DNA from: a virus
Lineage: Duplodnaviria > Heunggongvirae > Uroviricota > Caudoviricetes
Reading direction: 5' to 3' (one strand)
Length of the DNA stretch: 34,195 nucleotides
Virus record (IMG/VR): IMGVR_UViG_2579778804_000007
Coordinates: 1-34,195 of that record
In this document: one piece after another, positions 1 to 27,132 of the stretch
How the letters are laid out: each line of letters starts with the position of its first letter
How positions within the stretch are numbered: position 1 is the first letter of the stretch
Made by a program: the position numbers and the translations under genes
Notes under the pieces: model-generated
The model's input: only the letters and a program-made list of their open reading frames with translations
What the model was told of the DNA's origin: nothing
Database searches by the model: none

Positions 1-120
1 TACCCAATTTTTCTGAATCTAAAAAGCGCCTGCGGGTGGTTTTGGTGGTGTATTAACATATTGAAAATAAAGGTTTTTTATTTTCATGTGTCCAGATAAC
101 GTCCATCTTTGAAACAAAAA

Positions 121-153
121 GCCCGCAGTTTTTACGCTGCGGGCTTTGTTTTT
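121..153. terminator. Rho-independent terminator hairpin (GCCCGCAG / CTGCGGGC) with A-run upstream and T-run downstream; ends hok-like locus 1 on the minus strand
   Basis: Perfect 8-bp GC-rich inverted repeat with 8-nt loop, flanked by aaaaa and tttgtttttc; functions as a terminator in either orientation. Confidence 0.5.
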
Positions 154-238
154 CTTTGTGACTTTTGTGTGAGGGTGCGACTTTCGACCGAACCTTTGGC
201 AACCGGATAGCGGGGGCTTTCACCCCCGCTGCGGTTTC

Positions 239-379
239 TTACGGTTTACACTGCAAGAACGCCGCAAATTCTGACCACATGATGTTAAGTCTGAACTCAC
301 ACGGAGAACGGTGTATCATCCAGACGGTCAACAACATGGTTAAGCATAAAATGCTCACGATGATCGTTTTTTGCGGCAT
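239..379 (-). CDS. Hok/Gef-family type I toxin, 46 aa (copy 1)
   Basis: Minus-strand ORF MPQKTIIVSILCLTMLLTVWMIHRSPCEFRLNIMWSEFAAFLQCKP: N-terminal TM helix, then R-S-x-C-E and E-x-A-A-F motifs as in Hok/HokA toxins. AAGGAG 9 nt upstream of ATG. Below the ORF-track size cut-off. Coordinates +/-2. Confidence 0.7.
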   Translation of the reverse strand: MPQKTIIVSILCLTMLLTVWMIHRSPCEFRLNIMWSEFAAFLQCKP

Positions 380-534
380 AGCGCTTGACTCCTTTTACAG
401 GGAGGCGCTAACCTTCCACTTGTCTAGGGTAGGAAGGGTTAGGCCTCGGGTTAAACAAATGTTTTACTCGGGGCCTTTCCACATCCGGCCTTCAGGTATT
501 CCTTCCAGCCGTCAGCCGAAAGGCACCCGCATGT

Positions 535-563
535 AATTTACTGATTTCCCTTTGTGTGCGCAA
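535..563 (-). promoter_or_regulatory. Putative sigma70 promoter of hok-like locus 1 (TTGCGC-N17-TAAATT on minus strand)
   Basis: Hexamers read on the minus strand; the same arrangement recurs upstream of copy 2. Confidence 0.35.
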
Positions 564-592
564 TGCTCAGTATTGAAGCTGTTGAGGGGAGA

Positions 593-621
593 CGGCAAAA
601 AAAAGCCCGCATATTGCGGGC
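593..621 (-). terminator. Rho-independent terminator ending hok-like locus 2 (GCCCGCA-tat-TGCGGGC followed by U-run on minus strand)
   Basis: 7-bp GC stem with 3-nt loop, A8 on + strand immediately 5' (T-run on minus). Confidence 0.5.
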
Positions 622-711
622 AATGAAGTCAGTACGCTAACCCAAAAGGGTGCCATATCAGCCGAACCCGGCAACCGGATAGCGGGGGGCTTTCACCCCC
701 GCTGCGGTTTC

Positions 712-852
712 TTACTGTTTACACTGCAAGAACGCCGCAAATTCTGACCACATGATGTTAAGCCTGAACTCACACGGTGACTTGTGTATCATCCAGACAA
801 TCATCAAAATAGTTATGCATAAAATGCTCACTATGATCGTTTTTTGCGGCAT
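712..852 (-). CDS. Hok/Gef-family type I toxin, 46 aa (copy 2)
   Basis: ORF MPQKTIIVSILCITILMIVWMIHKSPCEFRLNIMWSEFAAFLQCKQ; differs from copy 1 only by conservative substitutions (L/I, M/I, R/K, P/Q) despite nucleotide divergence, suggesting purifying selection. AAGGAG ribosome-binding site. Coordinates +/-2. Confidence 0.7.
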   Translation of the reverse strand: MPQKTIIVSILCITILMIVWMIHKSPCEFRLNIMWSEFAAFLQCKQ

Positions 853-1003
853 AGCGCTTGCTCCTTTTTCAAAGAGGCGCTAACCTTCCACTTGCTAGGT
901 AGATGGTCAGGGCCTCGGGTTAAACAAATGTTTGACTCGGGGCCTTTCCTCATCCGGCCTTCAGGTATTCCTTCCAGCCGTCAGCCGAAAGGCACCCGCG
1001 CGT

Positions 1004-1032
1004 AATTTACCTTTTACGTCCGTTACGTGCAA
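1004..1032 (-). promoter_or_regulatory. Putative sigma70 promoter of hok-like locus 2 (TTGCAC-N17-TAAATT on minus strand)
   Basis: Same spacing and -10 hexamer as locus 1; overlaps the first TTACGT repeat cluster. Confidence 0.35.
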
Positions 1033-1600
1033 CGGATGACGTGGCTGTTTTTCCTTCCCCTTCGCCATCCTTTTTCGGAGCAGTTGTGCAAAAGTGTGCA
1101 AAAGTGATTTTTGCTGCCACTCCCCGCCAGGCCGCGCCAGTTCTGGCTTTCCAGATTTTTTCGTTTTCGTCGTCGGATCCTTTTTCAGATCTTCGATCGT
1201 GACGTAATTTTAAAAATCTCTTGTTATTCAGTGCATTAAAATTTTTCGGGATCCTCAGAAAGCCGGAGTTTTTGCACACTTTTGCAAAACCTTGCACAAA
1301 GTGCAAAACCATTCAGAAGGGAAAACCTCAGTAATGGCGCGCCCTGGAGGGGTGTTTTGCACCCCTTTCGATTTGCAAAATTTATCGTACACAAATACCG
1401 GAGGCGTGTGCGGGGTAGCGCCGATTACGTCACTTTACGCGTTACGTCGCCCCCGAAAATTTCCTGCCATTTGCGGCGATTTTGGGGCGCAGAAATCGTT
1501 TTCTGATGTCAGGGGATCGAATCGGGCTGTCGGGGTTATCTCTTCGTTACGTGGCGTTACGTGACGTTTTACGCGGGGATTACGTGGGGCGTTTCGTCCA
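1010..1600. repeat. Non-coding array of short direct and inverted repeats: about 10 copies of TTACGT(G/C) in clusters (about 1012-1045, 1196-1206, 1425-1450, 1545-1590) interleaved with GTGCAAAAG direct repeats and TTGCAC-N3-GTGCAA inverted repeats (about 1085-1110, 1270-1312, 1355-1385)
   Basis: Repeats seen directly; ORFs called here (1007..1312 minus, 1282..1564 plus) look non-protein-like. Function unknown. Confidence 0.5.
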
Positions 1601-26877: not shown

Positions 26878-27073
26878 TCCAGAGTTGAGAATCTCGGGGT
26901 GGCGAGACGTACGGGGTTCTCAACACCGGCTACACACGATCCCGGCCCGACCGAAGTCGGCCCCGTACGCCCCGCCATAATTCTGACGCGAAAAAGACGT
27001 GGCAATACAGTACGCACAAAAAAACCGCTGGCGCGGTTGTGCGCGTGTGTAGTCAGCGGGTTGAGAATCCCGG
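26878..27073. promoter_or_regulatory. Intergenic regulatory region: GTTGAGAATC direct repeats (about 26881 and 27060) with an inverted copy (about 26915), inverted repeat CGTACGGGG / CCCCGTACG, and a minus-strand terminator hairpin AACCGC-tgg-cGCGGTT followed by a T-run (about 27015-27045)
   Basis: Repeats and hairpin seen directly in a roughly 380-bp non-coding gap. Confidence 0.4.
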
Positions 27074-27132
27074 CACCCGTTTTATGAGGTGCAGCGGAAA
27101 TGTAACCTGACTCAACGAGCGCTGGCAAGCGG

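Follow-up and report, generated by a model that had tools for sequence, protein, structure and literature searches.

Two tandem, probably intact hok/sok-type cassettes without a conserved mok frame in a P2-family prophage of Escherichia coli

Do two adjacent copies of a very small toxin gene near the end of a prophage represent complete toxin-antitoxin cassettes, are they borne by the phage or by its host, and would one copy interfere with the control of the other? These questions are raised by positions 112–1032 of the virus record IMGVR_UViG_2579778804_000007 (IMG/VR; 34,195 nt, the whole of which was analysed and is referred to here as the window), where an earlier note, made from the sequence alone, had described a tandem duplication of a hok-family type I toxin locus. 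The window is a segment of the Escherichia coli chromosome beginning directly 3' of serS, and it consists almost entirely of a P2-family (Peduoviridae) prophage, some 33 kb long, with the integrase gene at its end. In our judgement the region probably holds two intact type I toxin-antitoxin (TA) cassettes of the hok/sok type, arrayed in tandem and borne by the phage.

The array consists of two head-to-tail units, each with one minus-strand open reading frame (ORF) of 46 aa. The note had given the two adjacent units a size of about 415 bp; the repeats are indeed adjacent, but their start-to-start period is 469–473 bp, and it is the predicted transcripts that measure about 415 nt (hok-1) and 400 nt (hok-2). 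Apart from this size, its description was accurate. The copies are 90% identical over 372 nt (BLASTN), far above chance, with 91% identity between 212–396 and 685–869, 96% between 442–541 and 911–1010, and a mean column identity of 87% over the two aligned units. The AAGGAG ribosome-binding sites (RBS), 9–10 nt 5' of each ATG, the G+C-rich stem-loops 3' of the stop codons, the matching TTGC(G/A)C-N17-TAAATT promoters and the rho-independent terminators, the last recovered by a terminator scan, are all present in both units (Table 1). The promoter hexamers (TTGC.. and TA(A/G/C)ATT) are kept in 28 homologous units, with the 17-nt spacer free to vary. A generic promoter scan called no promoter on either strand; it missed the hok promoters because they match just 7 of 12 consensus positions. 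In phage P88 and in other prophages, too, the last hok unit is followed by the hok-1 terminator.

Both peptides have the architecture of the Hok/Gef family, i.e. a peptide of the ~50-aa type with an N-terminal hydrophobic helix followed by the C-E and (E)xAAF motifs, and the signature reads R-S-P-C-E in peptide 1, K-S-P-C-E in peptide 2 and E-F-A-A-F in both. Family membership, which the note had left to profile and BLASTP searches, was borne out by both: the peptides match Pfam HOK_GEF (PF01848) at 27.8 and 31.0 bits over profile positions 7–42 of 42 (gathering score, 22 bits) and PHROG 251 at E values of 5e-19 and 3e-20, and BLASTP gave 45% identity (21/47) to HokA of E. coli K-12, including the S-x-C-E and AAFL-CK residues. 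PADLOC returned no match. The best NCBIfam match was the HokA equivalog NF007290 (37.9 and 39.5 bits; cut-off, 89), and the Hok subfamily model NF007279 scored 27.3 and 30.4 bits (cut-off, 73). Since these scores, and those of the Rfam sok model given below, lie under the respective cut-offs, the window peptides are not HokA orthologues and form a distinct subfamily instead of being orthologous to a named hok. RefSeq proteins WP_001135720.1 and WP_032211837.1 are identical to the window peptides, and the close database relatives are all E. coli proteins already named Hok/Gef family protein. As had been noted, the copies differ in nucleotides while the peptides differ conservatively: 13 differences were counted in the coding sequence, with proportions of synonymous (pS) and nonsynonymous (pN) differences of 0.22 and 0.067, and the pN/pS ratio of 0.31, calculated from small numbers, is consistent with selection on the peptide.

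Folding of the full-length minus-strand transcripts, also proposed in the note, predicted the long-range 5'/3' pairing of hok mRNAs in both units (-176 and -169 kcal/mol; z -9.0 and -7.6 versus shuffled sequences). In the minimum free energy (MFE) structures, the first 15–17 nt pair with a segment just 5' of the terminator, these two segments being assigned as tac and fbi, respectively; the definitions of the tac, fbi, ucb and dcb elements are those of R1 hok (PMC9841398). A comparative set of 26 distinct homologous units (72–100% identity) was assembled, and tac-fbi pairing was predicted in all 26. The tac/fbi helices (helices 1 and 2) are 98–99% paired and contain both one-sided and compensatory changes. 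The RNAalifold consensus has 84 pairs, with 98.4% of the cells paired as compared with 37–43% in controls in which the partners were slid by 1–3 columns, compensatory changes at 13 pairs versus 0–8, and a covariation score of 0.170 versus 0.026–0.044, the consensus having been derived from the same alignment that was used to score pairing. The conserved helices include tac/fbi, a 5' hairpin and the 3' stem-loop, the last showing compensatory changes at four pairs across the homologues, together with a conserved 10-bp helix in which the hok start codon region (AUGCCGCAAA) pairs with UUUGCGGCGU inside the codons for E-F-A-A-F. The Rfam sok model (RF01794), which covers the leader of the hok mRNA as far as its hok AUG, matches both units on the hok strand over 157/157 model positions (E 7e-10 and 2e-9; 51.3 and 50.0 bits). 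It begins at position 528, the inferred 5' end of the hok-1 mRNA, where the tac-1 segment lies 7 nt after the -10 box and is invariant in the 26 units.

Removal of the 3' end is predicted to change this fold. In truncated RNA the 5' end pairs with ucb (GGAAAGGCCCC), and GAGGC pairs with GCCUC around a variable loop to form a target hairpin, of which the variable 5' arm and loop in unit 1 are complementary to the 5' tail of the predicted Sok-1 RNA and can be aligned to Rfam sok positions. This conformer is the MFE structure, or lies within 2.2 kcal/mol of it, at every tested 3' end between nt 312 and 344 in both units, and is the MFE structure in 16 of the 26 homologues at one chosen 3' end. 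For the target-hairpin arm and the upper Sok hairpin, where indels make column-wise covariation unusable, per-sequence folds were used instead; these retain the target hairpin in every one of the 26 units (-15 to -22 kcal/mol).

No antisense RNA had been mapped in the note. The search of the plus strand that it recommended yielded, as predictions, one Sok-like candidate of about 60 nt per unit, each composed of a single-stranded 5' tail, a hairpin of 17–18 bp and a UUUCC end (Table 1). The tail-plus-hairpin fold is predicted in 26/26 units (-21.6 to -30.3 kcal/mol). The -10 box of the putative Sok promoter, TAACCT, is invariant in the same units and aligns with TATCCT of an R1-type plasmid locus, right after the complement of the GAGGC box. 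At three positions the plus-strand stem has G-U pairs (in 19/20, 19/20 and 13/20 sequences) that in the mRNA would be C-A mismatches, a sign that the hairpin is fitted to the plus-strand RNA. The putative Sok promoter is weak by consensus. A Sok-like gene at this position is thus well supported by homology, and its transcription is presumed.

The units lack one element of the R1 locus. No conserved mok frame was found, 19 of the 26 units, including unit 1 of the window, having no ATG, GTG or TTG ORF that reaches the hok Shine-Dalgarno (SD) sequence; in the remaining 7 such ORFs start from unrelated positions. The search was validated on an R1-type control, in which the mok ATG was found at nt 112. 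The absence of mok does not represent damage to the window locus, as it is common to the whole subfamily, with P88 and VT2-Sakai as examples among free phages. Unit 2 alone contains a 40-codon ORF (831–953, minus strand), which begins at a family-invariant AUG at mRNA nt 45 and runs 22 nt beyond the hok-2 start; it is probably fortuitous, since the same AUG opens frames of just 1–29 codons in other units. As a substitute for mok, we considered that in truncated RNA the freed GAGGC might capture GCCUC and thereby release the hok SD sequence; this found no support, as the ensemble accessibility of the SD sequence barely changes.

By analogy with R1, the cassettes could operate as follows. A stable minus-strand mRNA of about 400 nt would be made from a moderate promoter and closed by pairing of the 5' tac (GGGUGCCUUUCGG...) with the 3' fbi (...GCACCC), the hok SD sequence and AUG being paired in the closed form. 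Slow 3' trimming back to the stable stem-loop would remove fbi, upon which the freed 5' end would pair with ucb and the GAGGC...GCCUC target hairpin would form. The short, unstable Sok-like RNA of about 60 nt, expressed on the plus strand from TTG(A)CT(C)-N17/18-TAACCT, would then pair with the target hairpin and inactivate the mRNA. If Sok synthesis stopped, because the prophage was lost or because transcription was shut off by an infecting phage or in the course of induction, production of the 46-aa membrane peptide would follow and the inner membrane would be damaged. Without a conserved mok, Sok cannot work by blocking a leader peptide; the predicted Sok pairs with mRNA nt 47–108, 27 or more nt away from the hok SD sequence at nt 135–140, and its most likely mode of action is cleavage and decay of the duplex or occlusion of a ribosome standby region. 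The 3' processing and the toxicity of the peptides are likewise presumed.

Several observations weigh against the assignment of two intact hok/sok-type cassettes. The NCBIfam HokA and Hok-subfamily scores are far under their cut-offs, and those of Rfam sok are under the gathering score of 59. Both promoters are weak by consensus and were missed by the scan, and just three U residues come after the Sok hairpin. The mok step, one of those that define the R1 mechanism, is missing, and the calculated accessibility of the hok SD sequence goes from 0.28 (full-length RNA) to 0.33 on truncation and is back at 0.28 when Sok is bound to the truncated form. Finally, the 96% identity of the Sok hairpin region between the copies would allow some cross-reaction.

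Table 1. Features of the hok array and its junction with host DNA (window coordinates)
Feature	Position	Strand	Basis or remark
att core CCTGCGGG, host/prophage junction	29..36		host DNA (serS downstream) to the left
Intrinsic terminator, hok-1 mRNA	112..147	-	terminator scan; hairpin 112-154 bidirectional
fbi-1, 3' element pairing with mRNA 5' end	173..190	-	full-length MFE pairs nt 1-17 with fbi-1
3' stem-loop, hok-1 mRNA; expected 3' end of processed form	209..232	-	scan and fold
hok-1, 46-aa Hok/Gef-family toxin ORF (MPQKTIIVSILCLTMLLTVWMIHRSPCEFRLNIMWSEFAAFLQCKP)	239..379	-	profile matches, HokA alignment
Predicted Sok-1 promoter, TTGACT-N18-TAACCT	385..414	+	-10 box invariant in 26 units
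Shine-Dalgarno AAGGAG, hok-1	389..394	-	AAGGAG in 24/26 units, AAAGAG in 2/26
Target hairpin 1, GAGGC (mok SD box homologue) paired with GCCUC (dcb)	402..447	-	truncated-RNA fold
Predicted Sok-1 RNA: ~21-nt single-stranded 5' tail, hairpin 442-475, then UUUCC	421..482	+	ends inferred
ucb-1 (GGAAAGGCCCC)	470..480	-	pairs GAGGC in full-length RNA, tac in truncated RNA
tac-1, hok-1 mRNA 5' end (GGGUGCCUUUC)	518..528	-	inferred transcription start ~528
hok-1 promoter, TTGCGC-N17-TAAATT	535..563	-	hexamers conserved among homologous units
Intrinsic terminator, hok-2 mRNA	597..621	-	terminator scan
fbi-2	648..664	-	fold and homologue pairing
3' stem-loop, hok-2 mRNA	681..705	-	scan and fold
hok-2, 46-aa Hok/Gef-family toxin ORF (MPQKTIIVSILCITILMIVWMIHKSPCEFRLNIMWSEFAAFLQCKQ)	712..852	-	profile matches, HokA alignment
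Predicted Sok-2 promoter, TTGCTC-N17-TAACCT	858..886	+	weak, 6/12 consensus positions
Shine-Dalgarno AAGGAG, hok-2	861..866	-	sequence
Target hairpin 2	874..916	-	per-unit fold
Predicted Sok-2 RNA: ~17-nt 5' tail, hairpin 910-944, then UUUCC	893..951	+	fold
ucb-2	939..949	-	fold
tac-2, hok-2 mRNA 5' end	987..997	-	inferred transcription start ~997; Rfam, conservation
hok-2 promoter, TTGCAC-N17-TAAATT	1004..1032	-	hexamers conserved among homologous units

The Sok hairpins of the two window copies are almost identical and their 5' tails differ. Among 19 closely related units, the apical part of the Sok hairpin has a nucleotide diversity of 0.40, and the segment of the Sok 5' tail and target loop one of 0.35, values inflated by gaps, as compared with 0.01–0.08 in most other segments, 0.155 in the fbi region and 0.15 at synonymous sites. 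Sixteen tail and 10 loop variants were found in the 26 units, and they assort independently. The calculated tail-target duplexes of the window are far more stable for cognate (-40.0 and -34.0 kcal/mol) than for non-cognate pairs (-14.6 and -11.2 kcal/mol), as they are overall (cognate, -34 to -40 kcal/mol; non-cognate within arrays, -11 to -23 kcal/mol). Since it is in its 5' tail and apical loop that Sok varies most, each predicted Sok probably recognises just its own mRNA, so that the two copies would not cross-regulate; the pattern suggests orthogonal copies, short of proof. That all 7 arrays have different tails was dropped as evidence: chance alone would be expected to give this result when 26 units share 16 tail types, and a comparison at the level of arrays has too little power. 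A broader view, which we put forward tentatively and consider less likely than the array assignment itself, is that temperate phages of E. coli carry stackable arrays of 1–3 hok/sok copies, that diversifying selection and modular recombination keep the Sok tails and loops different so that each copy is an independent lock, and that in these mok-less cassettes Sok silences via decay or a standby block.

The same data can be read in another way, namely that the duplication is a neutral by-product of unequal recombination, that the Sok RNAs cross-react through their near-identical hairpins, and that the tails and loops drift without constraint. Unequal crossing-over predicts the copy numbers of 1–3 in otherwise similar prophages and the identical unit-to-unit junctions, tandem junctions are rare among genomes with any member of the subfamily (21 versus 665 of 5,426), and the shared hairpin, the inflation by gaps and the chance level of the tail differences all agree with it. 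On the other side, diversity in the single-stranded Sok segments (0.35–0.40) exceeds that at synonymous sites (0.15) and in other non-coding segments (0.01–0.16), the target hairpin is nonetheless kept in every unit, the same tail occurs with different loops (units L001b and L012a), which implies that the segments are exchanged as modules, and differences of 3 nt in a single-stranded region are known to separate the duplicated zor/orz loci (PMC3919570). We regard neutral duplication as possible but doubtful. That at least one of the copies is a remnant in decay that has ceased to be expressed or toxic, as have hok loci of E. coli K-12, would agree with the weak promoters, the lack of a mok frame and the precedent of K-12 hokA, which is interrupted by IS150; it is nevertheless improbable, because the ORF, SD sequence, promoter hexamers, all pairing elements and terminator are intact in both copies, the pN/pS ratio is low, a prophage at another site contains unit 1 at 100% identity and a third genome an identical unit 2, and mok is absent subfamily-wide. 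Direct translational control in a mok-less family would be explained if the antitoxin RNA were longer, starting inside the hok coding sequence (e.g. from TAAAAT at 347–352 on the plus strand, a 5/6 match to the -10 consensus that recurs at the same place in unit 2), covering the hok SD sequence and AUG and ending at the same hairpin, in which case neither mok nor action at a distance would be needed. But this hexamer has no -35 element and is constrained by the I-L-C codons of hok, while the invariant TAACCT box, the hypervariable segment starting 7 nt after it and the homologous place of the Sok promoter in the R1-type locus fit a short Sok, making the longer RNA very improbable. We attach next to no probability to the reading that makes the 123-aa ORF at 165..536 of the plus strand the true gene and treats the small ORFs as incidental: it is the longest ORF in unit 1, but, as the note had observed, it is not conserved in copy 2, where it is split into pieces of 43 and 53 aa. 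It has no significant Pfam or PHROG family match, conservation of the long plus-strand frame across homologues was not seen, and conservation and covariation all track the minus-strand RNA and peptide.

Whether the array of two hok/sok-type cassettes is borne by host or phage, the remaining question of the note, can be answered in favour of the phage: the same array with its flanks is present in prophages at serS, ytfP and zapB. Within the P2-family prophage in the serS terminator, some 130 bp separate it from the attR-proximal end. About 5,000 prophage-free genomes match only window positions 1–43, and the core CCTGCGGG is repeated at the dmsA-side junction of a sister lysogen and recurs, with the same phage arm, at an unrelated zapB-side insertion (NZ_AP042483.1). 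Because host homology ends at about 36–43 and the core recurs, the DNA from about position 37 on, including the terminator at 112–154, is phage DNA. A boundary at position 172, from which several genomes begin to match, was ruled out on the same grounds; positions 44–172 are a phage arm common to the serS and zapB prophages, from which the ytfP prophages, with another terminal arm, diverge at 172. The occurrence of the same arm and core at serS and zapB suggests that short cores resembling one another serve this integrase in different terminators. At serS the prophage sits in the terminator hairpin (window 1–60), which the insertion weakens. The hairpin at 112–154, being bidirectional with T-runs on either side, could also end transcripts that read through from serS.

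There are two copies in the array at serS, two beside ytfP and three beside zapB, and 1–3 across related prophages, and the neighbouring phage genes differ, being either ogr/D or tail and baseplate genes. Single copies are found in phage P88, other Peduoviridae, many Stx phages (3' of lom) and some plasmids with prophage fragments. A relative is present in 665 of 5,426 complete E. coli genomes (about 12%), a full unit-to-unit junction in 21 of them; an alignment-based search gave 11 related viral loci, and the patterns used detected no relative among species-representative genomes from other taxa. The genome of phage VT2-Sakai (Sp5; NC_000902.1, 44533–44906) carries an unannotated 46-aa hok of the same subfamily 3' of lom.

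In the remainder of the window, about 680 bp (1033–1714) between hok unit 2 and a 557-aa ORF contain no convincing gene; they include inverted repeats of 21–23 nt (1083–1106/1270–1299) and iterated TGCAAAA/TTTTGCA motifs. A 101-aa ORF (1007–1312, minus strand), which corresponds to a RefSeq hypothetical protein and has no match in Pfam, PHROG or PADLOC, overlaps the hok-2 promoter. Elsewhere, C4 antisense RNA (26895–26982, minus strand; 76.8 bits) and isrK (27018–27092, minus strand; 61.8 bits) were matched at the Rfam gathering level and represent a P1/P7-type c4-like immunity RNA module within the P2-family prophage.

One documented role of hok/sok, known from R1, is the killing of cells that lose the element. 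In addition, R1 hok/sok interferes with infecting phages (T4), as cited in PMC8621323, and hokW-sokW assists lysis and phage release on induction (PMC8621323). By analogy, killing after loss, interference with other phages and aid to lysis or release are the candidate roles of the window array, whose position as an attR-proximal moron with its own promoters and terminators fits expression from the lysogen; in Shiga toxin-producing and other E. coli, such cassettes may stabilise prophages, exclude other phages or aid lysis. The toxin family had been annotated previously and the prophage context is familiar, so that the finding is ordinary apart from the missing mok frame and the divergence of Sok, and the array does not overturn current understanding. 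What is added here is a map of the cis elements and predicted Sok RNAs, evidence that the array is phage-borne and varies in copy number, and the findings that mok is absent and that the recognition segments are hypervariable. Keyword searches of the literature turned up neither tandem hok arrays in P2-family prophages nor a mok-less hok subfamily, which is not proof of absence. In the databases the toxin ORFs are annotated, the antitoxin RNAs and cis elements are not, and some phage records, such as VT2-Sakai/Sp5, lack even the ORF. Deleting hokW-sokW alone from Sp5 would leave the second hok, 3' of lom, in place. With its otherwise constant scaffold and at least 16 variants of the Sok tail and 10 of the loop, the subfamily is a natural set suited to the study of cis-antisense orthogonality, and a mok-less lineage could be used to test the need for leader-peptide coupling in the hok mechanism. 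If Sok does silence an RBS 27 or more nt away, this would be a mechanistic variant of the textbook hok model.

Among known systems, R1 hok/mok/sok (parB) resembles the window units in its small Hok/Gef peptide, stable mRNA of ~400 nt with tac/fbi end-pairing and a stable 3' stem-loop, in having ucb, the GAGG box and dcb in the same order (definitions in PMC9841398), and in its antisense RNA of ~60 nt with a 5' tail, hairpin and -10 box at the homologous position, the RNA being predicted in our case. Unlike R1, the window units lack a conserved mok leader frame, encode peptides of 46 rather than 52 aa, are prophage-borne and in tandem, and score below the Rfam gathering score. An IncFII R1-type hok locus (NZ_CP128973.1, 32150–33005) has, owing to a 1-nt length difference from the R1 sequence, a mok ATG in frame with hok, and RefSeq annotates just a shortened Hok ORF there. 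K-12 hokA/mokA/sokA provides the best NCBIfam match, shares MPQK..WMI..S.CE..AAFL.CK in its peptide (45% identity) and has the same 5' GGGUGC and 3' GCACCC ends. It differs in being a single chromosomal locus inactivated by IS150, in showing no detectable DNA similarity to the window units beyond short words, and in that the window peptides score 38–39 bits against the 89-bit equivalog cut-off. For Sok action without mok, tisB/istR-1 is a possible model: there, as Darfeuille and colleagues are said to have shown in 2007, the antitoxin competes with standby ribosomes, pairing far 5' of a structured toxin RBS with no leader peptide involved. There is no homology between the two systems, and the likeness is one of analogy only.

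Like the window array, hokW-sokW of the Stx2 prophage Sp5 is a prophage-borne hok/sok, and it is a functional type I TA with a toxin and an RNA antitoxin (Takada et al. 2021, PMC8621323), of which the Sok RNA disappears upon induction and which itself raises phage release about twofold (PMC8621323). HokW, however, belongs to a different subfamily of 51 aa at another place in Sp5, and no tandem array has been described for it; E. coli O157 Sakai as a whole has 14 Hok/Gef genes (PMC2887945). Head-to-tail toxin/small RNA (sRNA) cassettes in one intergenic region are also found in zorO-orzO/zorP-orzP, ibs/sib and ldr/rdl (PMC3919570, PMC2887945), which, unlike the window array, are chromosomal and belong to unrelated toxin families, and the Orz sRNAs, being divergently encoded, are not cis-antisense RNAs in the strict sense. 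The zor/orz copies are told apart by a few nucleotides in the single-stranded recognition region of the sRNA (PMC3919570), and the Sok recognition tails of units 1 and 2 differ in a like manner, with the discrimination between the two hok mRNAs predicted here.

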